Shown piece by piece: positions 20,548 through 48,457 of a stretch of 64,000 nucleotides of DNA. Numbering within the stretch: the first letter of the stretch is position 1; each line of letters starts with the position of its first letter. The position numbers and the translations under genes were made by a program. The DNA lies in the IMG/VR virus record IMGVR_UViG_3300021387_001083, positions 20,634 to 84,633 of that record, one strand, 5' to 3'. A model generated the notes under the pieces. That model searched no databases, was not told the origin of the DNA, and was given only the letters and a program-made list of their open reading frames with translations. Source of the stretch: a virus. Lineage: Duplodnaviria > Caudoviricetes.

Positions 20548-23500
20548 TTAATTCTTACATAAGTTTTTACTTTTTTCTATTTCTTTATCGATTGCTAGCA
20601 GTTGTATTTTAATAGCGTTACGACTTTCATCGTCTTCATTAGCTTCATAATCTGACAACAAAGCATTTCTTTCGTTGTAAAGTGCTTCTAAATCAGCATC
20701 ATTCTCTTCAACCTCAGTTGGAGTAGTCTTTATTTCAGGGGTATCTTCATGAGGATCGGAAATATTTTGCGGTGCTTGTGATGTTATTTGCTGTGTTGTA
20801 AATCTAGCTTTAAAAGCCTGTTCATCAGAAATGTCTCGACCGTTGATATCTCTAAATTTCCATCCTTTAGGAGCTAAAATACCACTTCTAATACCTAATT
20901 TCATTGCAGCTTTAATACCAGCCTCATCATAACCAGTTTGTCCACCACTTCTGATAGTCTCTATTTTAGTTTTTAGATTAGGATGATTTAACACTCTATT
21001 GAGTAAGTTATAGACATATTCATCAACTTGCTCTTGGGTGTATTTACCCTTTAAAGTATAGATACCATTACCTGCAATATTAAGAGATTTGGCATTTACC
21101 TCGTTTAATTGGTCAACTATAGAATTTACTAACTTATCAGTAATTTCTGGATTATTGGTATTAACAGGAATATATTTTTTACCATTCTCCAAAACAGCTT
21201 TTTTAGTAAGTCTTTCTCCAGCAGAGTTAAAATCAACAGCCAAAGCAATAGTAGCGTCAGCTTTGGCATTCTTAATGGTTCTTTCTCTATAACCATTAGA
21301 AGATTCTTCTTTAAATAAGGGCTCTGCAATAGTAGGTTCTTGAGAAGTAGGCTGACTGGTAAATTCTTCAAAATTCATAACTAACTGATTGGGGTCATGG
21401 TGATATTCCCTCATCAATCTGTTTCTAACTTCCATAAGAATTCTAGGAAACTCAGTACCCCATTTACCTTTATCTTGGGTATGAGTTAGAGTAGCATAGC
21501 CTGTTTCAAAAAGTTTTTGTCTAGCTTGAGGATTCTGTCTAAAAGACTGTTCAATTAAGACTTCCATAGTTTTAGAAGAGATTGCCTCCCAATCTTCTAA
21601 TATAGTCTTACTACTATAAGAGACCTTGCCCATAGGAATAGTCCTTCCAAGTTTTTTAATTTCTGAAGGATTTTTAGAAGCAAGTATTTTATCTATTATC
21701 TCATTACATTTTTCCTCATTTTTACGTCCTTCTTCACTTTCATCGTTTATATAGTATCCTCTAGCATAAGCAGCTTTAATAGCTTGAAATGCTTGCTCTA
21801 CAGAATCAAATGAAGTACTTGCTAAAAATTCTTCTACTCCATCAGAATCTAAAAATTCCCATTCAGATTTTAAATCAAAGAAATCATCATTAGTAAAACT
21901 TGAAAAGTCAAAAGGTCTTTCTGCAAAATTACTTAGTTCCACATTCTCTCCAGTACCTGCATAAATATTAATAACTTCTGTTTTACTAGGTTCTTTCATG
22001 TTATTTTTGTTATTATTTTTCTTTGCAACATATTTTGTATCAATGACATCAACAAGTTCACTAGGATTAGATTGAGCATCGTATACAAGAATATGTTTTG
22101 CTATACCAAGAGGATTGATTCTATCATATACAAGAGTTTCATCGTCAGATTCATCTTCATTCTTTTTATAATAAACATTTTCACCATTGGAAACGATTGT
22201 TATATAAGGATGATAAGTGTTTTCAGATCTATTGATACCCTTACGAAGTATCAATTGTTCAGCACCAGAGCCTCTGACATTTTTGACATCGACAAAAAGT
22301 TTGTCTTCAACATTGTATACAGTTTTGCCTTTATCGTTAACACTTGCTATATTTGAAAAGGTTTCTATAGGAACTTCAGGCGACAAAGATCTTTCATTCA
22401 AATTGTTTAGTATAAACATCTCCAAAAAGCCTGAAAGATTAAAATTGCCTTTTTCCATATTTCTGATACAGTCAATGTAATCACTGTTTACAGATTCTCT
22501 TGTAAACGTATTGGCAAGATGTATATATGTATCAGGACCGAAATCCCAAGCCGTCCTTAAACCTGCATAGAAAAACAGTTCGTCAGCAAGTTGTCTGATC
22601 TTAGGATCTTTCGACTCAAACAAAGAACCCCAATAATTACCTATAATCCATTTAGAACGATTGTTCAAATGTCCAACGTTCATAAAATTAATTGTCGGCG
22701 CATTACAGGATTTTGTTTCTGAAAAAGTTCTTAACCTGGAAGTAAACATGTTGTTTTTGAGTTCAGGCATTGTCATACTCATGGTTTTGAATTTAAATGG
22801 AAAATCATATACCCATTTTCTTAAAATGTCTGCTTTGGTCAATACTTTTCCTGTCACAGGGTCTTTTTTGCCTACTTCATAAACTTTACCGTCAATGTCT
22901 GTATAGCTAGAATAATAATTGTTTTCACCACCGAAAGCAGTAAATACATAAAGTCTTGAATCCCTATAAAATCTGTTTACTAACTTTGGACTTAATTTGC
23001 CGGTTTTAGTAATAGACCTTAACTGGTCAAGCAATTTCGGATACTGACTGTTAAATTCAGGAAAATAATCCTTGAACAATACATTGGCAGATTCAATACC
23101 AAACGTAAACGACGCTTGTATGGCAGGGAAAGGTGAGTCGGAAAACATACTTAAAACTTCATCAGGATTGCTGTCAATAAGCTGCATTATCCTGTCAAGC
23201 ATGTTTACACGGACAATTGACCTGACTCCTGTCAAAGGATACGATTTTGCTTCGGAATCTTGTAAAATTTGTCTTGCTACAGCAATCCTGTTCTCGGTAG
23301 TAGCTATATCAGGACCAGCAGCACCAGCAGAAGTATCTGCTTTACAGAACTTTACAATATCACCTAAGACTTTTGCTATCTTAAAGATATTATAATAAAG
23401 TTCTCCCATTGCAACTTGATCTTGAATATATTTATAATGTTCCTCATTATTAAGTTGATTGAGTTCCAATCTTCTTGCCTGAAGTTTATTATGAAACATA

Positions 23501-38421: not shown

Positions 38422-38858
38422 TGTAATTGTTTTAAATGTTTAACAAATTCTGTAACTTCTGATATAGAATTTATTCTTAAAATGATATAGCGTTCTTTAT
38501 CTTCAAATTTTTCAAACAGTTTCCTGAAAAGTTTGAATTTATAAGGAAAGACATCATTTTCAAAACCCTTGACTTCAATAATAATCTTGTAATTGTTATA
38601 CTCTATGATAAAATCAGGAGTATATGTCCAATCACGCAATTTTGCAGAGTTGTTTTTGAAACAGTGTTTTTTCTTGTTATAAACCCAAAAAGGCACTGTA
38701 GGTTTAAACCCTTCAAACAATAAAAAAGTCTGAGCTTCATATTTTGGTTGAAACCCAGACTCTTTCAATTTTTCATAGACTTTTTTTTCAAGAATGCTTT
38801 TGAATTGAATTCCGTCAAAAAAAGTCATAGTAGCATTTTTGATCTTTTTGTTTATCAC
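38418..38858 (-). CDS. PD-(D/E)xK endonuclease (DUF1064/resolvase-like)
   Basis: DGIQFKSILE, YTPDFII, IIEVKG. Confidence 0.8.
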   Translation of the reverse strand: MINKKIKNATMTFFDGIQFKSILEKKVYEKLKESGFQPKYEAQTFLLFEGFKPTVPFWVYNKKKHCFKNNSAKLRDWTYTPDFIIEYNNYKIIIEVKGFENDVFPYKFKLFRKLFEKFEDKERYIILRINSISEVTEFVKHLKQLQ

Positions 38859-40105
38859 GAGTAAGTTATAAAATCACTAAGCATAATATTGTCTTCTATG
38901 GTTGTATCACTGCCTGCAAAATCTTCATTGATTTTCTGCATTTGCGAAACATAATAGAGTTCTGTGATACGTTCTTTCATGTATGTGCTTTGTTTATACT
39001 GGTATATTTCGTCGCATATTGCATGAAAATAAGGTGTTGCAATTTCTCTATGTCTGATTTTATCACGTAATGTATCAATATCAACAGGACCAAATTTCTT
39101 GGTTAAAACTTCTGCATATTGAAGCAATGCATTAAGCAACATAATCCAAGTGCAGACTTTCGTAAAATTATACGTAGGTCTTAAGAATCGAAATTCTATT
39201 GTTTTCGGAGATTTATAACAAAGAATATTTATAAAATTGATCCAATAATATCTTGTATTGATTTGCCATTTTCTATTGTGTTCGATATCATTGGGATGAT
39301 TTTGATAAAGATCTCCAAAGAAGTTATTACCAACAAAGTAGTTGTAGAATTGTTCGAATGTTTTAAGTTCTTCTGCGCTTGGCAATGATCTGCAATAACT
39401 TTTCCCATTCTTCTTATAGTTCTCCGTATTGAACACATATTTGTTGGTTAATTTTTCGATTTCTCCTTTTTCTTGAAGCCAATAACATAATGTATACAAT
39501 GTGAATATATAATCAGGTTCAACAGGAAAACCACCGAAATGGATATGAAGTGCACATTCTTTATTATAGGCTGTATATTTTCGTAGAAGATTCAATTGCT
39601 GTTTCACTAAATTCAAACCTCTACTTTTAGCCAGCACTATAGTGGAATATTCGTTTCCTGAAATAGAACCATCTCTAAGAGGAATAAGACCACTTAAAAA
39701 ACATTGGTCTTCAGGAATGCAACCCATTGAGGTTTCATATTCAAGACCAAATGTGTATTTAAGTTTCCCAGAACCTATGAATTTATAATTCGTCGTAGGT
39801 TCTTCTTTGCCATTAAAGATGTTGAAGTGGTCTACTGCTTCATATACCTGTTCAAACCTATATGGATATACATGTGTACCTTTATATACAGTATGTCTTA
39901 AAATATCGGATTTTAAAAATTTGTTTTTCAAATAATACCGACCTGATATAGTAGAGAAAAACACAATATTTTTTACGGCTTCATAACTGTCTGCTATATA
40001 AACTACTTCATCAAAATTGTCACAGATTTCAATATGTTTATATTCAGGCTCTTTTAAAATACCAAATACTGGTTGATCATCTTGTGTATTTACTATACCT
40101 CTCAT
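38855..40105 (-). CDS. Putative amidoligase (glutamine synthetase/glutamate-cysteine ligase fold)
   Basis: FGLEYET, RDGSISGNEYST, CALHIHFG, RYYWINF and TIEFRF motifs. Confidence 0.8.
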   Translation of the reverse strand: MRGIVNTQDDQPVFGILKEPEYKHIEICDNFDEVVYIADSYEAVKNIVFFSTISGRYYLKNKFLKSDILRHTVYKGTHVYPYRFEQVYEAVDHFNIFNGKEEPTTNYKFIGSGKLKYTFGLEYETSMGCIPEDQCFLSGLIPLRDGSISGNEYSTIVLAKSRGLNLVKQQLNLLRKYTAYNKECALHIHFGGFPVEPDYIFTLYTLCYWLQEKGEIEKLTNKYVFNTENYKKNGKSYCRSLPSAEELKTFEQFYNYFVGNNFFGDLYQNHPNDIEHNRKWQINTRYYWINFINILCYKSPKTIEFRFLRPTYNFTKVCTWIMLLNALLQYAEVLTKKFGPVDIDTLRDKIRHREIATPYFHAICDEIYQYKQSTYMKERITELYYVSQMQKINEDFAGSDTTIEDNIMLSDFITYS

Positions 40106-41526
40106 CCCAAATAAAATTTTCTTAATTCACCAAATTGTATTCTGTCTTTTTTATTCCAAATAGCTTTGAAATCATTTTCTGTAGAACAACGTGTCCATTC
40201 ATTAATCACCTTGCCTTCGGAAATGGTGTATTGTTTTCCGCTGAGAACTTTGTGAAGGACACCTGAATATATCGTCTGATCAAATACATCACCGACAACA
40301 AAAGGTGATTCTGGCTCAGTAGAATCTTCTCTTAAAGGATAAGCCGAAAGATAATACAACAAATCCGGATATGCGTAGATAAAATCATCAAGATTCACAT
40401 TAGACTTTTTTCTTAATGCGTTAAGAAAATTGAAACAATTTTTGTTTTTCAACAAAATACCGTCCCAAAAATGCAATTCATACAAAATATCTTTCGTTGA
40501 ATCAGCATGAAGTCTTCCAAATTTGTTAACCGAATACGTTCCAGTGACATTCTTACCATCCATTATATACCTATCACGTCTATTAGCATAATAAATATAT
40601 TGTTTGGTATTTGTTTCGTTGTAGGAACTTATTAAACCAGAAGATTCAGGGAATACATCATCGTCATCGTCATCATACCAATCATAGTGTGGTTTAACGA
40701 TTGCTTTTGTTGGAGTAGTTTGTTTTGATGACGAGTAATAAGATGAATAATTTTCATAGCCATTTGTAAACCTATATTGTCCTGACTGACTTACAGAACT
40801 TCTGTCATATTCTCGTATGCAATATAATTCAGAATTCTTTAATTCAATAAGTATATTTGAAGTTATAGTGTTTACCGTAGCATTAGGTTTAAAAGCCTTA
40901 AAGTATGTAGGTATTGAAGAAAAGACAAAACTCTTGTTGATATAAGTAAAATAGAAAGGTCTTTCTTCTTTAACATCGGAATTAGTATATTCATATTCTC
41001 TAGAACTGCCCCGAAACATCAATATCTTTGTAGGATTTGAGCGATAGTCGACAATGAAAAACACAGATCCTCCATAATATTCAGATAAACAATCATAACC
41101 AGCATTATAGAAAATATTGGCCATGACTTGGGAATCTGTCATACCTGTGATATCAATATTGGGGATGTATTTTTTTGCCAATTCACCATAATTATAGATC
41201 GTTCCATTATGTATAACTACAAAATCAGGCTTATTGTTCTTATATATAACTACAGGTTGTGCGGTTTTTTTAGAGACAGAACCTACGGAAGCTTTTCTGC
41301 AATGGCCAAGTGCAATAGTTGAAAATTTGGTATTTTTTAGAATTTTACTTGTTTGCAGAAAATCATAGAAATATTTCTCTTTCTCAGTTCCGTATTCTAA
41401 AGCGCCATCTATGAACACACCACAAGAGTCGCCTCCACGTGCATCATTCAATATGCCAAGAACATTAAATAATTCGTTATTGAATGGTTGTTTTTTAGCA
41501 TTTATAATTCCAAATATTCCACACAT
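40102..41526 (-). CDS. Class II (Ntn) glutamine amidotransferase
   Basis: N-terminal MCGIFG, RGGDSCG, LGHCRKAS, HNGTI and TDSQV. Confidence 0.85.
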   Translation of the reverse strand: MCGIFGIINAKKQPFNNELFNVLGILNDARGGDSCGVFIDGALEYGTEKEKYFYDFLQTSKILKNTKFSTIALGHCRKASVGSVSKKTAQPVVIYKNNKPDFVVIHNGTIYNYGELAKKYIPNIDITGMTDSQVMANIFYNAGYDCLSEYYGGSVFFIVDYRSNPTKILMFRGSSREYEYTNSDVKEERPFYFTYINKSFVFSSIPTYFKAFKPNATVNTITSNILIELKNSELYCIREYDRSSVSQSGQYRFTNGYENYSSYYSSSKQTTPTKAIVKPHYDWYDDDDDDVFPESSGLISSYNETNTKQYIYYANRRDRYIMDGKNVTGTYSVNKFGRLHADSTKDILYELHFWDGILLKNKNCFNFLNALRKKSNVNLDDFIYAYPDLLYYLSAYPLREDSTEPESPFVVGDVFDQTIYSGVLHKVLSGKQYTISEGKVINEWTRCSTENDFKAIWNKKDRIQFGELRKFYLG

Positions 41527-41527
41527 C

Positions 41528-42328
41528 TTATATCATTTTTTTTTGATTTTTTAAAATATTGTATGTACGACATACACTCATTGCTTTTTCTTTGCATCCT
41601 TCGTTAATGATTTTTTGTGTTTCATCTTCTGGAAACAATTCTTTATTTTCAACAAAAGCGTTATAAGCAGCCATAGCTTGTGTGAAAGCAAATTCCATCA
41701 ATTCGTCATTTGCAATAAAAGCTCCTGAAAGCACTCTGTATTCGAGGCCGTATGGACATAATCTGAAGCTTCCGGCTTTACCGTAAAGCTGACGTCTTTC
41801 GGAATCGTCATCAAACAATACAGAAGGAATTCCGACATACATATCCATATAACGTACAAGCATCAATGAATCGTATGTATTAGGTCTGTCATAACCTAAA
41901 TGAATATGGCAGCCTGTCGAACGTAGGTCTGTGGATTCACCCTTTGGTTTTGGGTTTGGTCTTTCAGTATATACATTATAATCGACAGAACATCCAAAAA
42001 GCTTAGCTTCTTTGCTTTTAAGCTGGTCTTTGTCAACATGTGCTGAAGCTTTGCAAAGAATGTCATAATCAGGATTTGCTTTTTGTACAAAGTTTCTGAT
42101 ATAATCCTTCATATAATTCATATGATGTAACCATTCTTCAAGCGTTGTACATGGTGGAATGTTGAATTCTGCCAAAATATTGTCTATTTCAAGGCCGAAA
42201 CCTTCAGGCATATCATCGCTTCTATAAGGGTTACCTTTTTCACCGGGAATAATACCAATGGACGATATTATTTTTTCATTCCGTTTGTCATAAATAAACA
42301 GTTCGGGATCTGCACCTATTGTTATCAT
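41528..42328 (-). CDS. phiEco32-like COOH-NH2 ligase type 2
   Basis: TIGADPELF, DNILAEFNIPP, FGCSVD.N, RSTGCHIH.G, R..YGKAG.FR..PYG.EYR.LS. Confidence 0.85.
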   Translation of the reverse strand: MITIGADPELFIYDKRNEKIISSIGIIPGEKGNPYRSDDMPEGFGLEIDNILAEFNIPPCTTLEEWLHHMNYMKDYIRNFVQKANPDYDILCKASAHVDKDQLKSKEAKLFGCSVDYNVYTERPNPKPKGESTDLRSTGCHIHLGYDRPNTYDSLMLVRYMDMYVGIPSVLFDDDSERRQLYGKAGSFRLCPYGLEYRVLSGAFIANDELMEFAFTQAMAAYNAFVENKELFPEDETQKIINEGCKEKAMSVCRTYNILKNQKKMI

Positions 42329-42330
42329 TT

Positions 42331-42987
42331 TTATATTAAAGACTTTAAAATGTTATTGAATGTTTTTATTGTTTGTGAGTTTAAATCCATCATCTCAGGA
42401 TGTCCTTGAATAGCAAGGAATTTTGGATTGTTTTGTTTATGAAACAAAATTACTTCTGGTTCACCAAAAGTATTTATTTTTGATATTTTTTCAACATCAC
42501 CATCGAATTTGTCACCAGCATAATAGCCTTTGCTTCTTTGTTCTTCAGATATATAAAGTAATGTGTAATCATCTGGATCCATATCATAAGGATACATCAT
42601 CTGATGATGCAAAGAAGGAATATCCAATTCCAAAGGCAGTTCTTCGTTATCAGATACATTAATGATGGAATGAGTGCTACCAATCCAGTGGTTGTCGACA
42701 TCTTGTACCAGCAAACCACCATTCAGCGCACATGCTAACTGTGCTCCTCTACATATGCCGAGACCAATCTGGTCATTTCTCATTTTATGGTAACATTCAA
42801 GTTCATATTTATCACGAGCTTCAGTGAAGTATGTAGTTTTATGAACTTTACAACCATATAATGCAGGATTTATGTCCTCGCCTCCAGTGAACAATACTAT
42901 GTCTGCGTCTTCAATGGATTTTACTATTTCCAGCGATTCAATCCATCTTGAATAACTTTTACTGAAACCAACTACAAATACTTTCAT
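42331..42987 (-). CDS. Class I glutamine amidotransferase / peptidase C26 (PuuD-like)
   Basis: FTGGEDINP, nucleophile elbow GICRGAQ, SLHHQ, IQGHPE. Confidence 0.85.
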   Translation of the reverse strand: MKVFVVGFSKSYSRWIESLEIVKSIEDADIVLFTGGEDINPALYGCKVHKTTYFTEARDKYELECYHKMRNDQIGLGICRGAQLACALNGGLLVQDVDNHWIGSTHSIINVSDNEELPLELDIPSLHHQMMYPYDMDPDDYTLLYISEEQRSKGYYAGDKFDGDVEKISKINTFGEPEVILFHKQNNPKFLAIQGHPEMMDLNSQTIKTFNNILKSLI

Positions 42988-44492
42988 TTTTTATAAAACG
43001 CTTTAAAATTATCCTTATAATAAGTTAATCTTTTATCAAAATTATTGATCCAAAAACTATAATTATATGCCATATATTTATAGTCATTATCAATAAAACC
43101 AAATGCATTGTTTTTGATACGTCCGTAAAACTCACTAAATTTAGTCAGACTGGCACTGTAGTTTTGAATACTATCGTCATCAGATTCTTCCAATGCTTCA
43201 AGATCAAGTTCTTCTTTATCGTCTTCTATATCTTTCAAATATGTTTCCAGTTTGTTATAAAACTGTGTTTTTGAAAAATGGTTTAGAAGAGAAATGTCAT
43301 CATACTCGCTACAAGCAAAGAAATCGTACTCGCGTTCAGAAAAAAGTATTTCCTTTGTAGTAAAATTTATAATATTCAATATGTTTATTATGGAGTAATG
43401 GTTATAACCATTTTTGATAAGCTGCAATGCATCACTTAACATAAAATTATAAGGAAACATATAAGCATATCTAATCAACGTAATCAATAATTTATGCCAA
43501 AATACATTTGCATTTATCGTTACGTTGAAACGATAACCAACAAGATAATTCTTATCGTCAACATCTGTTATTTCATATTGAAAATCATGAACTTTTCTTA
43601 GTTTTTCAAAATATATCTGTATGTCGCTTTTAGAAAAGATACACCAGTTACGAGTTGGATTTGTATTGCTGTATTTTGTAGGAGTATCTATATAATACGT
43701 TATTTTATAGTCTGCAGTCTGATCTACATATGGAAACTCTTCTTTAAATAAATTACCAAAACACCAAGTGTCATGGTATACTTTTGAGAACCGATCGTAT
43801 GTACTGGTTGTGGACCATTTGCTGTTACTCATTCGATGACCAAAGTCTATATATTTGGCACAATATTTGCCAAAATATGACAAATATCTATATATCAACG
43901 AATTACAAAGCAAAACTGCGTTACTGTTTGTAGGCATTATTTCTGGATGACCTTGGATACATAAACATGAAGGCCTATCATCATTTATATTTTCATAAGC
44001 AAAAATTTCTGGTCTGTTATCTATTGTTGAAATATACAATATACGACCACGTTTGGTAATTCTTCTTTCATCTAACATCTGATGATGTGTAGATGTAATT
44101 TCCAGTTCGTCAGGCAAACTGCCAATAAAGGGTGAATAACGTCTTATAGTATGTGTTCCAGTTATAGCATGTCCCGGCACATCCTGTATAAGTTTTGAAC
44201 CATTCATAACAGCAAGAAACTGAGCTCCACGACATATACCTACACACAATTGTCTTTCACCATCTACTGAATTAAAAACAGATTGCTCATATTTATCCCG
44301 TGCTAAATTAGAATACGTTGTAGGATCTTTTTTCGCACCATACAATTCAGGAGACACATCTTCACCACCAGTAAACAATACTATATCTGCATCTTCTAAA
44401 CGGTCTACAATTTTGTGGTTTTCTATAAATTTCGCATAATTGGTGTCGCCACCAACAACATAAACTTTTACATTATCTATTAATTGTATCAT
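42984..44492 (-). CDS. Class I glutamine amidotransferase / peptidase C26 fused to an unknown C-terminal domain
   Basis: FTGGEDVSP, GICRGAQ, STHHQ and IQGHPE in the first ~200 aa. The remaining ~290 aa resemble ORF 44473-45327. Confidence 0.8.
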   Translation of the reverse strand: MIQLIDNVKVYVVGGDTNYAKFIENHKIVDRLEDADIVLFTGGEDVSPELYGAKKDPTTYSNLARDKYEQSVFNSVDGERQLCVGICRGAQFLAVMNGSKLIQDVPGHAITGTHTIRRYSPFIGSLPDELEITSTHHQMLDERRITKRGRILYISTIDNRPEIFAYENINDDRPSCLCIQGHPEIMPTNSNAVLLCNSLIYRYLSYFGKYCAKYIDFGHRMSNSKWSTTSTYDRFSKVYHDTWCFGNLFKEEFPYVDQTADYKITYYIDTPTKYSNTNPTRNWCIFSKSDIQIYFEKLRKVHDFQYEITDVDDKNYLVGYRFNVTINANVFWHKLLITLIRYAYMFPYNFMLSDALQLIKNGYNHYSIINILNIINFTTKEILFSEREYDFFACSEYDDISLLNHFSKTQFYNKLETYLKDIEDDKEELDLEALEESDDDSIQNYSASLTKFSEFYGRIKNNAFGFIDNDYKYMAYNYSFWINNFDKRLTYYKDNFKAFYKK

Positions 44493-45327
44493 AAAACATG
44501 TTATTAAATTTTTGTATTATATCCTGCATTGAAGCGTCAATGATATTTTTATATAAATTCAATTTTCCATTTCGTATCTTAGCAAATGCAATAGAATATT
44601 CTTCTTCAATTTCAGCATTTGTATGTTTGATTATAGTATTTTTAGTATCACTAAAATAGTCATTTATCTTACAATATTCTGAAACACATGTCATTAGTTC
44701 ATCTTTACTTAATTTTTTTGGTATTCTGCTAAGATGTTTCGTCATTGTGTTATGTAGATTGAAGAATAAAGAGTGCCCACTTAACATACTATTGAAATCA
44801 TAGAACAATATGGAATTGATGTAAAGTATTTGAAAAAGCTGTTCTTTTTCTGTTTCAGGATGGTTTTTAAAAAATTGCAATGCTGAATACAATACTCCAG
44901 AGAGTGGAAATTCATACAAATATCTGACACTTGTCAAAAATATCTTATGACAGAGTGGTGTACCTTTCAGATTATTGATAATCAAACTATAACCGTAATC
45001 ATTATTCAGTTTAAGTTTATATGTAAATGAAAAATAGTTTTTTAATATGTTCAGATATTTTTCTATATCTTTACGTTTAAAAAAGCATACATTATTACGG
45101 TTATCTATATGTGCCGGTGTTATTAATCTTATATTATATGATGATTTGATTATTATATCGTCGGGACAATCTATAAATGCAGTAAACAATTTCGAAAAAC
45201 ACACACTATTATCTGCAATAAGCCTTTCATTTCCATCCACATTTAGCTTTACATTATATATTGTGTGAAAATCACCTGAATTTAGTTTCCGTGATTCAAG
45301 TTTAGCTAAATCTTTCTTTGTTATCAT
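44473..45327 (-). CDS. Hypothetical protein, paralog of the C-terminal domain of 42984-44492
   Basis: Shared blocks CF..LF, C.F...DI..Y...L......Y and HK...T..RY.Y.FP. Confidence 0.65.
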   Translation of the reverse strand: MITKKDLAKLESRKLNSGDFHTIYNVKLNVDGNERLIADNSVCFSKLFTAFIDCPDDIIIKSSYNIRLITPAHIDNRNNVCFFKRKDIEKYLNILKNYFSFTYKLKLNNDYGYSLIINNLKGTPLCHKIFLTSVRYLYEFPLSGVLYSALQFFKNHPETEKEQLFQILYINSILFYDFNSMLSGHSLFFNLHNTMTKHLSRIPKKLSKDELMTCVSEYCKINDYFSDTKNTIIKHTNAEIEEEYSIAFAKIRNGKLNLYKNIIDASMQDIIQKFNNMFYDTINR

Positions 45328-46138
45328 CTATTATTTTTTTTAACATTTTAGTGTATTGTATGATACCGACTTCACCAAGTGCTGGAGCGCTATTGGTTTC
45401 AAGAATTATAAATTTCGGGGATTCTTTTTTTGTCTGTACTTTAACATCAACAGCTGCAATATCAAGTCCTACTGCATTTTTTGCTGCTATACAGGCATCT
45501 ACAATATCATTCCAGTTTAAAGGCTTGTCAAAAATAGGATTTTCTTCAAGAATCCATACAGAATTCGATTCATGGCGATGCCAACGGACATCTGCATCAT
45601 TTTTAAGCATTTTTCTGCAGGTATAGAAACATCCGTCATTAGTTATATGCAGTCTGTATTCTTTTGAATAAGTGTAATATTTTTCAAACACATAATTTTC
45701 ATAATGGTTGTAAGTTTGAAACCATTTTTCGAGATCTTCTTCTGTTTCTATAAAATAGATATTGTTACCTTTTGAAGAATGTTTATGTTTGATGATTATT
45801 CTTTTCCATTCTTTCAATTTCCCATAAACAAGATCTTTAAATGTCTGGACGTCTTCTTCTGGAGTTTTGATGATATATTCTGCAGTAGGTACTCCAGCCG
45901 CAACAAACAGCTGTTTCATGACTATTTTGTCATTTGAATTGGCACATGCTTCAGGAGAATTTATTTCAAAATAACCTTCTTTGCGTGTAATTGCATTTGT
46001 CGGCGTAGTACTACCCATTCTATAAATTACACCATACGGCACTTCTATAGATTTTAATGCTTTGCATGATGTATTTTTAGATCTTATTATTAGTTTTTTT
46101 GTACGCATAATAACAAAAAGGGGTATGATTTTCACCAT
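45302..46138 (-). CDS. ATP-grasp ligase (RimK/YheC-like); probable start at MRTKK
   Basis: DKIVMKQLF...VPT, IIKHKHSSKG, FEKY, EYRLHI, AAVDV and ILETNSAPAL. Confidence 0.85.
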   Translation of the reverse strand: MVKIIPLFVIMRTKKLIIRSKNTSCKALKSIEVPYGVIYRMGSTTPTNAITRKEGYFEINSPEACANSNDKIVMKQLFVAAGVPTAEYIIKTPEEDVQTFKDLVYGKLKEWKRIIIKHKHSSKGNNIYFIETEEDLEKWFQTYNHYENYVFEKYYTYSKEYRLHITNDGCFYTCRKMLKNDADVRWHRHESNSVWILEENPIFDKPLNWNDIVDACIAAKNAVGLDIAAVDVKVQTKKESPKFIILETNSAPALGEVGIIQYTKMLKKIIDDNKERFS

Positions 46139-47350: not shown

Positions 47351-48457
47351 TTATTCCCAAGGAAGCTTGTCTTCCGGTTCTTCGTTCAGAATTTTTTCAA
47401 GAGGTGATGGTTCCATAACAGGCATTGAAGCATTTGCCGGTTGTATGTCACTTGCTTCAATTTCGTACTTCTTGTAAGGACCACAATAAAATTCAGTATT
47501 TATGTATTTATTGTTGACTTTAGCCTCATTAAGAGCACGTTCAAACTTATAGTAAGTTCCAGTCTGTCTGTTAGGATATGCACTATATCTCAAGAAACAA
47601 TCCAAGAATGCGTCGGAAAATCTTCGTCCATCATCAATAGTTCTGATGCCGAACATTATCCTGACCATATTTTCAGATCTTGACTTTACAAAGTTCCTGA
47701 TTGCTGTAACGTCGCCTTTGAAAAATGCATTGAAGTCATCAACCGTAAACTGAAGTTTGCATTTGTCAAGATTCGGATTTGTCTCAAATTTTCCGGTATC
47801 GTTATTGAAGAAACTTACGTCTTGTAATCCATAAAACATGGCAAGGAAGTTGACAAGGTTCTCTTCGCCTCTAAACATAGGTCTGTAACTACCTGCATCA
47901 ATATCAGCAGGACCAGTCCTGTATTGAGGGATAGCTCTTGCCTTATATTCATCGTTGGTAAGCCAAGCGGTTCTTCTGTACTGATCTATGACACGCACTT
48001 TAGTACCGTCACTGTTTGTATAATAATTCTTTGTAAGAAGAAACGTTATAGGCTCAAATCTCTCAATACCGCAATGTTCCTTGGATGTTTTTACAATAAA
48101 CATTATTCTTGCCTGAGAAACAGGTTTGCCGTTAAAGTCTGTTCCTTCGGAAACATATTCAGGAATTCTCATGTCCCTGCCTGTGATTTCTTTTGCTTCT
48201 TCTGTAGTCGGATTTACAGCTACGATTTTACACGGTGCTACACCATAATATCTTTCAAAAGGAACTTTGTCAACTGAATCTTCTCCAGAAGAATAAGTAA
48301 GAAATGAATAAGTGTTCTTTTTCACTTCCTTTTCCTTTTCACTTTTGGTTTTTACTTTAGTATTGACTTTATATAATTTTTGATTCACTCTAATAGCTTC
48401 TTTTAGTTTATTCATTTCAATTAATTTGATAAAAATTTCTAATAGTTTGATCCACAA
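47351..48457 (-). CDS. Putative single-stranded DNA-binding protein (crAss-like)
   Basis: Lies between the ATPase and primase genes, acidic C-terminal tail ending EEPEDKLPWE. The start may be downstream of the annotated one. Confidence 0.55.
   Translation of the reverse strand: MWIKLLEIFIKLIEMNKLKEAIRVNQKLYKVNTKVKTKSEKEKEVKKNTYSFLTYSSGEDSVDKVPFERYYGVAPCKIVAVNPTTEEAKEITGRDMRIPEYVSEGTDFNGKPVSQARIMFIVKTSKEHCGIERFEPITFLLTKNYYTNSDGTKVRVIDQYRRTAWLTNDEYKARAIPQYRTGPADIDAGSYRPMFRGEENLVNFLAMFYGLQDVSFFNNDTGKFETNPNLDKCKLQFTVDDFNAFFKGDVTAIRNFVKSRSENMVRIMFGIRTIDDGRRFSDAFLDCFLRYSAYPNRQTGTYYKFERALNEAKVNNKYINTEFYCGPYKKYEIEASDIQPANASMPVMEPSPLEKILNEEPEDKLPWE

Follow-up and report, generated by a model that had tools for sequence, protein, structure and literature searches.

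A phage protein domain of about 270 residues, named X here, is a regular component of a known kind of phage operon, the phiEco32-type amidoligase gene cluster, in which it has carried no annotation. It occurs twice in a 64,000-nucleotide stretch of Caudoviricetes DNA (positions 20,634 to 84,633 of IMG/VR record IMGVR_UViG_3300021387_001083; hereafter the window), once as a free protein (X1, P0002) and once fused behind a class-I glutamine amidotransferase (GATase-I) as residues ~206–502 of P0001 (X2). X is a phage-specific family, integral to this operon in crAss-like and related phages. What is new here, and well supported, is its place as a regular but unannotated part of the operon, together with an invariant cysteine, a weakly ligase-like predicted fold and a probable extension into proteobacterial phages. 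We propose, with a probability of roughly 40%, that X is a ligase-like cradle repurposed around a putative cysteine site, which would work with a glutaminase or in its place.

The two copies are paralogs, as a sequence-only reading had proposed when it described a duplicated domain, one copy free and the other fused to a glutaminase. BLASTP aligned residues 241–361 of P0001 with residues 40–155 of P0002 (31% identity over 128 residues, 47 bits, E=3e-10), a segment that spans the three motif pairs matched by eye in that reading. A hidden Markov model (HMM) built from free-standing relatives of P0002 alone matched P0001 with E=1.5e-27, and the envelope of the refined profile runs from residue 189 to 502; the similarity covers the entire domain, beyond the BLASTP core. 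Structure prediction agrees with the alignments. AlphaFold2 models of P0002 (pLDDT 90.6, pTM 0.92) and of residues 206–502 of P0001, modelled separately (pLDDT 90.9, pTM 0.90), share one topology, with two strands, a helix, a strand, a helix, two long strands and three helices followed by a largely helical C-terminal half.

Conserved residues and predicted fold

An exhaustive phmmer search of 1.84 billion representatives yielded 100 clusters at E<1e-3, most of them free proteins of 240–290 residues and 11 with an N-terminal extension. The sequence-only reading had recognised no family for the domain, and the profile libraries bear this out: Pfam, PHROGs and NCBIfam returned zero matches for P0002, as did Pfam and PHROGs for 91 aligned relatives. 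Against PDB sequences the X profile reached E~0.04 at best, with chance-level matches to mannanases. A tblastn search of 50,697 phage records with P0002 found nothing at 1e-3, the copies in crAss-like phage cr108_1 being too diverged for this search. DUF7275 and DUF7277, which came up through ESM Atlas clusters (cosine 0.90–0.91), lay within the chance range and were set aside, and the fused copy brought up no usable match in a ‘named’ ESM Atlas search. A search for PF23940 in five relevant phage genomes gave no match; control genomes likewise gave none, so the result is uninformative.

Mean column identity in the X alignments is 11–18%, and 11% over the 120 sequences from which conservation was scored. 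One cysteine (Cys43 of P0002, Cys244 of P0001) is present in all 120, the Phe that follows it in 95%, and an Arg (Arg135/Arg341) in 97%; the Cys-Phe pair and this single Arg are the only universal residues. A second tier, comprising Asn79, Cys81, His127, Lys128, Tyr138, Glu139, Pro141, His185, Arg255 and Tyr259, is conserved at 68–88%. In the model the Cys-Phe pair comes right after strand 2, two residues ahead of the next helix, while the Arg belongs to an R-Y-x-Y-E-x-P motif. A zinc site formed by Cys43, Cys81, His127 and His185 was considered and rejected because these four positions are not co-conserved.

A Foldseek search of the PDB with the P0002 model returned nothing below E=0.03. With an exhaustive structural aligner, the top recurrent neighbours of both X models were PafA, Dop, GCL, GshF and gamma-GCS, over 146–196 aligned residues. 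Lower rows for the P0002 model contain human and Brucella glutamine synthetase, E. coli gamma-GCS, YbdK, arginine kinase and taurocyamine kinase (10 of 50 rows); the X2 model gave PafA (4.4), Dop (4.0), GshF (3.9), E. coli gamma-GCS (3.5) and Francisella GshA (3.1), along with one glutamine synthetase and two guanido kinases (8 of 50 rows). These neighbours suggest that the predicted fold is, weakly, glutamine-synthetase/PafA-like. In size X is akin to the PF14395 proteins (~265 residues) of the carboxylate-amine ligase superfamily (glutamine synthetase, GCL/GCS2, PafA/Dop, PF14395, PF12224), two bona fide members of which share its operon. When X was compared by hhalign with five enzyme-family alignments, the single match, to the GATase-I alignment (GAT1), proved to be an artefact of fusion proteins contained in it.

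Across the 120 sequences no predicted X strand carries a conserved acidic residue, and the Glu/Asp metal ligands of the ligase superfamily are absent. In contrast, D7, E9, E54, H141, H143, E196 and R198 are invariant in the PF14395 ligase of the same operon. Since X has no conserved metal- or ATP-binding residues, it is not another ATP-dependent ligase, and we call it a ligase-like cradle rather than a member of the ligase superfamily. We infer from the models that an ATP/metal site was either lost or never present in this cradle, and that a putative site centred on the Cys and Arg may stand in its stead.

The operon, its distribution and the history of the copies

The window has a G+C content of ~32% and contains three giant open reading frames (ORFs) of 1,402–2,947 codons. 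Its primase gene is 74.5% identical at the DNA level to that of Bacteroides phage crAss001, and its COOH-NH2 ligase shares 52% identity with the cr108_1 (Steigviridae) enzyme. Both copies of X lie in a dense minus-strand operon (Table 1) inside the replication module, flanked on the 5' side by a DnaB-like helicase, Sak4, a 368-residue ORF and the primase and on the 3' side by a resolvase-like endonuclease, an exonuclease and ribonucleotide reductase. For the 368-residue ORF (47351–48457, minus strand), which separates Sak4 from the primase, PHROGs gave no match at 1e-3. Genes for an ATP-grasp ligase, a COOH-NH2 ligase type 2, an Amidoligase_2 protein and a class-II GATase are contiguous at 38855–46138, which is the gene content by which Iyer et al. 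2009, in the summary given in PMC10580990, define the phiEco32-type cluster. Adjacent genes of the operon overlap by 26, 20, 4, 4 and 4 nucleotides (translational coupling) and are otherwise 1–2 nucleotides apart; X1 takes part in the two longest overlaps, with the stop of P0003 (26) and with P0001 (20), and P0001 in turn overlaps P0004 by 4.

Table 1. Genes and domains of the amidoligase operon in the window, in order of transcription
Feature	Position	Strand	Description and basis
P0003	45302..46138	-	RimK-like ATP-grasp ligase, first operon gene; Pfam ATPgrasp_ST/RimK (below curated cut-offs); phrog_2599 9e-28
X1 = P0002	44473..45327	-	Free copy of X, 284 residues; full family signature; BLASTP, AlphaFold2
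X1 signature residues	Cys43 codon 45199-45201	-	Cys43-Phe44, Asn79, Cys81, His127-Lys128, Arg135, Tyr138, Glu139, Pro141, His185, Tyr259
P0001	42984..44492	-	GATase-I + X2 fusion ORF, 502 residues
P0001 residues 1-205	43878..44492	-	Class-I GATase / Peptidase_C26; triad Cys87, His182, Glu184
X2 = P0001 residues 206-502	42984..43877	-	Fused copy of X; BLASTP, profile, AlphaFold2
X2 retained residues			Cys244-Phe245, Asn282, Cys284, His333-Lys334, Arg341, Tyr344, Pro347
X2 substitutions			Met345 for family Glu; Tyr389 for family His
P0004	42331..42987	-	Stand-alone class-I GATase / Peptidase_C26, 218 residues; Pfam, PHROGs
P0005	41528..42328	-	phiEco32-like COOH-NH2 ligase type 2 (PF14395), glutamine-synthetase-fold amidoligase; Pfam 7.7e-12; phrog_3815 6.6e-67
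P0006	40102..41526	-	Class-II (N-terminal nucleophile, Ntn) glutamine amidotransferase, N-terminal Cys2; Pfam GATase_6/7; MCGIFG at residues 1-6
P0007	38855..40105	-	Amidoligase_2-type ligase (PF12224), last enzyme gene; Pfam 1.4e-4 (22.3 bits, cut-off 22); phrog_2443 1.6e-13

The marker ligase of the cluster is carried by 319 isolate-phage records and 394 IMG/VR stretches. Two sets of loci were compiled: a first set of 93, made up of 80 IMG/VR loci found through the ligase gene, the loci previously anchored on X or annotated, and the window; and a second set of 80 further IMG/VR loci of proteobacterial type. In the first set X is present in 75 of 93 loci, singly in 50 and doubly in 25, and 74 loci have both X and GATase-I, their joint presence being the rule in crAss-type loci. 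GATase-I follows X in 74 of 100 cases, while 17 X genes are followed by another X and two by a GATase-X fusion; the ATP-grasp comes directly before X in 52 of 100. Typically the order is primase, ATP-grasp, one or two copies of X, class-I GATase/C26, COOH-NH2 ligase type 2, class-II GATase and Amidoligase_2. The four-gene amidoligase set recurs in cr108_1, in UFV-P2 and in Privateer, where the end of the locus truncates the ATP-grasp, and, in variable order, in nearly all of the 160 IMG/VR loci that are long enough. Homologs of X scattered mostly outside ligase clusters would have spoken against the sequence-only reading; instead, every X-anchored contig with visible neighbours (L002, L003–5, L007, L008, L009, L177 and L178) has an adjacent ATP-grasp, GATase-I and/or COOH-NH2 ligase gene. 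L006 and L176 are too short for context, L176 being an X-X tandem.

Several of these loci have features of their own. Phages with large genomes (most ~150–350 kb, mostly ~175 kb) carry an ORF of 314–375 residues in the usual ATP-grasp slot upstream of X (L017:6507–7568, L018, L019, L029, L030, L032, L033, L041, L063, L078, L082); this ~340-residue ORF has no Pfam match, and hhalign was negative against X and the GRASP, CNL2, AML2 and GAT1 alignments. In three crAss-like contigs of 57–92 kb (L003, L004, L005) the X homolog P0025 (8001–9011) translates only with TGA read as Trp, an apparent sign that a stop codon is recoded in this lineage; in their cluster a GGACT (gamma-glutamylamine cyclotransferase-like) gene also precedes the ATP-grasp and thus lies two genes upstream of X. 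In Leptolyngbya phage Lbo-JY46 (L012; 736–4945 and 5007–12733) the cluster, which comprises a GATase, GGCT, a ligase, a 536-residue ATP-grasp and a 729-residue GAT-II fusion, adjoins genes for the nicotinate phosphoribosyltransferase PncB and the phosphoribosyl pyrophosphate synthetase PrsA.

The GATase part of P0001 is intact, scoring 57.3 bits with PF07722 (cut-off 20.5; 2.5e-15) and 27 bits with PF00117 (cut-off 22.8) and preserving the catalytic triad in the motifs GICRGAQ (Cys87) and QGHPE (His182, Glu184). Because this domain is intact and a paralog, 40% identical, of the stand-alone P0004, the locus has the look of an X-GATase cassette that was duplicated and then fused at its two middle genes. 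All 11 N-extended representatives of X form one clade in a maximum-likelihood tree, which means that the GATase-X proteins arose in a single old fusion event. The tree comes from a quick search and has many long branches (median end branch 0.43 changes per column, with ~20 branches above 1.5); its starred local groupings alone were used. The GATase part is intact in P0001, P0018–21, P0042 and P0049; in P0032 and P0078 it can be recognised only in part, and in P0104 and P0070 not at all. X itself is kept throughout. The N-terminal 115–160 residues of P0104 (L007:3460–4767) and P0070 (L006) bear a faint trace of a GATase N-terminus (BLASTP E=0.006) without the catalytic Cys motif, and look like a decayed glutaminase domain kept as an appendage. 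No longer fusion forms, of 589–2000 residues, were found, which is weak evidence, and among the forms found none is fused to a replication protein.

X has also been duplicated repeatedly, because the two copies of one locus are often sisters in the tree (the cr108_1-like clade, L060 and L023). The operon of cr108_1 is the same but has both copies free (gp029 and gp030; mutual match at E=4e-11). The fused clade alone replaces Glu139 by Met or Gln and His185 by Tyr; in pairs of the cr108_1 type, Gln replaces His185 and Ser replaces Tyr138 in the first copy; single-copy X proteins nearly always have the full signature set. Judged by these signature residues across clades, X1 is the complete copy and X2 the degenerate copy in the window.

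Probably related proteins in proteobacterial phages

Directly upstream of the marker ligase, UFV-P2 (LUZ24-like), Privateer and phiEco32-type phages encode one or two hypothetical proteins of 280–420 residues. Like X they belong to unannotated families, phrog_29805 and phrog_7973 in UFV-P2 (gp19/gp20), phrog_24882 and phrog_19161 in Privateer (gp094/gp093), and a further pair in the phiEco32-type phages; unlike X, they occur in loci from which GATase-I is mostly absent. The corresponding ORFs of the second set fall into seven clusters unlinked by BLAST, each with an invariant Cys at residues 20–29 followed by Phe, Tyr or Trp and usually Gly. A later Arg is invariant in six of the seven (not in uc2), and in four of these it forms the end of an (A)D...R helix motif. 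Of 67 such ORFs, 61 have the pattern C-[FYW]-[GAS] among their first 70 residues, as against 5 of 625 other proteins of the clusters. Some of the seven are paralogous pairs by hhalign (uc5 and uc6, probability 95%; uc3 and uc6, 93%).

HMM searches linking X to these ORFs stayed below threshold (E>=1e-3 in a tiny database). The best hhalign score, also sub-threshold, aligned X collinearly with one of the clusters over 133 columns (E=0.0097). Foldseek connected both X models to a protein of Aeromonas phage 4_4572, with probabilities of 0.98 and 0.94; the first model also matched Cronobacter phage GAP52 (0.90) and Vibrio phage Vp_R1 (0.30), and the second both GAP52 proteins (0.38–0.47). Taken together, X and these ~300-residue proteins probably share ancestry.

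Two further genes were noted in clusters of this type. UFV-P2 gp22 (L010:6783–7343), which corresponds to an ORF of ~190–235 residues following the ligase in most of L093–L175, is a conserved hypothetical protein (phrog_4877, no Pfam match) encoded between the COOH-NH2 ligase and Amidoligase_2; it is absent from clusters of crAss type. UFV-P2 gp24 (L010:8485–8889), an HNH homing-type endonuclease gene, sits between Amidoligase_2 and the class-II GATase in the LUZ24-like cluster.

Candidate roles and known glutaminase partners

In the role that we propose, the X cradle would bind an intermediate that the neighbouring ligases of the pathway produce, either a carboxylate or a gamma-glutamyl compound, at a putative site centred on the invariant Cys-Phe and the invariant Arg. 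It would act with the C26-type glutaminase, either as an acceptor or ‘synthase-like’ partner or as a thiol-dependent subunit that handles the amide. A single X gene may give a homo-oligomer and two genes a hetero-oligomer; in the window we infer that the complete X1 would associate with the degenerate X2, the latter tethering the glutaminase to X1. The GATase-X fusion speaks for this role as a ‘Rosetta stone’ link between GATase and X, and the recurrent duplications into sister pairs would fit a self-associating protein.

Several observations weigh against this proposal. The fused clade does without Glu139 and His185, even in L007, where that copy is the sole X. Nine crAss-type loci have GATase-I without X; among proteobacterial loci, 23 have GATase-I without an X-like protein and 40 an X-like protein without GATase-I, while three loci of the second set have both and three have neither. 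Finally, hhalign gave a probability below 1% for X against P0005, P0007 and alignments of 151 and 152 homologs, a test that is insensitive because the two ligase alignments, CNL2 and AML2, themselves reach a mutual probability of only 7%.

The either/or/both pattern speaks against a role of X as nothing more than an obligate subunit of the GATase, and X may be able to perform or bypass the job of the glutaminase. A bolder and rather unlikely version places X and the ‘CFG’ proteins of LUZ24-, phiEco32- and Privateer-like phages in a single superfamily: cysteine-dependent enzymes of a new kind, built on a pared-down ligase cradle, that would deal with the pathway's amide nitrogen or its gamma-glutamyl group and could replace class-I GATase. 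Such a superfamily would explain why clusters have an X-like protein, GATase-I or both and hardly ever neither and, if real, would supply the missing catalytic step of a phage pathway unassigned since 2009.

Alternatively, X might be a non-catalytic pseudo-enzyme, a dead ligase-like cradle that serves as a scaffold holding the ATP-grasp, GATase and ligases or as a specificity adaptor that recognises the target, with the Cys, Phe and Arg needed for folding or binding alone. We regard this as a serious rival, somewhat less probable than the role proposed above. The absence of ligase catalytic residues from a ligase-like cradle, the tolerated loss of Glu139 and His185 in one clade, the very high sequence divergence with its long end branches, the recurrent duplication into complete and degenerate copies, and the decay of the GATase part of the fusion in lineages that keep X all agree with it. 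Yet a Cys that is invariant at such low mean identity, and invariant again in the seven BLAST-unlinked clusters, is more typical of a residue that reacts or contacts a ligand, and the either/or/both pattern with GATase-I suggests that X adds chemistry beyond assembly.

It is improbable that X is the carrier or target on which the product is built, in the manner of LysW, ribosomal protein S6 or Pup targets, through a Cys thioester or a terminal residue. Its gene lies directly downstream of the RimK-like ATP-grasp, its Cys is invariant, and PafA and Dop, which it neighbours in fold, act on glutamate linked to proteins; however, the likeness is to the enzyme and not to its substrate, and at 250–330 residues X is large for a carrier. 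The C-termini argue against this role because they are basic and unconserved: the last six residues average 0.55 Asp/Glu as against 1.9 Lys/Arg, and the last residue is Lys in 79 of 196 proteins and Glu/Asp in 26 of 196, with no conserved acidic residue at the end. Least credible of all is that X belongs to the surrounding replication module (helicase, Sak4, primase, resolvase, exonuclease and RNR), for example as a nucleic-acid-binding protein merely beside the ligase genes, since X travels with the ligase and GATase genes rather than the primase, is found in the ~150–350 kb phages without a primase nearby, changes position only inside the cluster, and is fused to GATase and never to a replication protein.

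Papers that name the cluster list its ligases and GATases and leave the ~280-residue ORFs as ‘conserved hypothetical’, for example UFV-P2 ORF19/20 (PMC3890496); Iyer et al. 2009 may already mention them in this way. In 2023 the function of the system was called unexplored (PMC10580990), with cell-wall modification or superinfection exclusion cited as a suggestion of Iyer et al. 2009; the products and purposes suggested so far are cell-wall or protein modification and a novel metabolite. The cluster is widespread, in the early/replication region of crAss-like gut phages, LUZ24-like Pseudomonas phages of interest for therapy and phiEco32-like coliphages, and a pathway rebuilt from its annotated enzymes alone would miss one or two conserved genes. 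Recognising X would allow several ‘hypothetical protein’ families to be merged under one name, and as a regular component with a mutable invariant Cys it offers a handle for biochemistry and phage genetics.

Class-I glutamine amidotransferases have acceptor (‘synthase’) partners, in architectures such as those of GMP synthase, PabA/PabB and CTP synthase. X matches none of the known synthase families and has no visible ATP-binding motif, and unlike these systems the clusters include cases of GATase-I without X and of X-like proteins without GATase-I. X resembles the acceptor partners in being a second domain fused behind GATase-I, as in one clade, or encoded beside it, directly upstream in those 74 of 100 cases. 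A second comparison is with gamma-glutamyl ‘protect and release’ pairs, such as the glutamine-synthetase-like PuuA with PuuD (Peptidase_C26), and with the gamma-glutamyl-CDP-amidate hydrolase Cj1417. These pathways have no X-like component, unlike the operon, but like it they combine ligases of the glutamine synthetase fold with C26-type enzymes. The best NCBIfam matches of the fused GATase include Cj1417-type and PuuD-type models (gamma-glutamyl-CDP-amidate and gamma-glutamyl-gamma-aminobutyrate hydrolases) and are weak, 25.7 bits against a cut-off of 250. Along with the C26 assignment and with gamma-glutamyl cyclotransferase genes that some variants of the cluster carry, they suggest that the pathway involves gamma-glutamyl chemistry.

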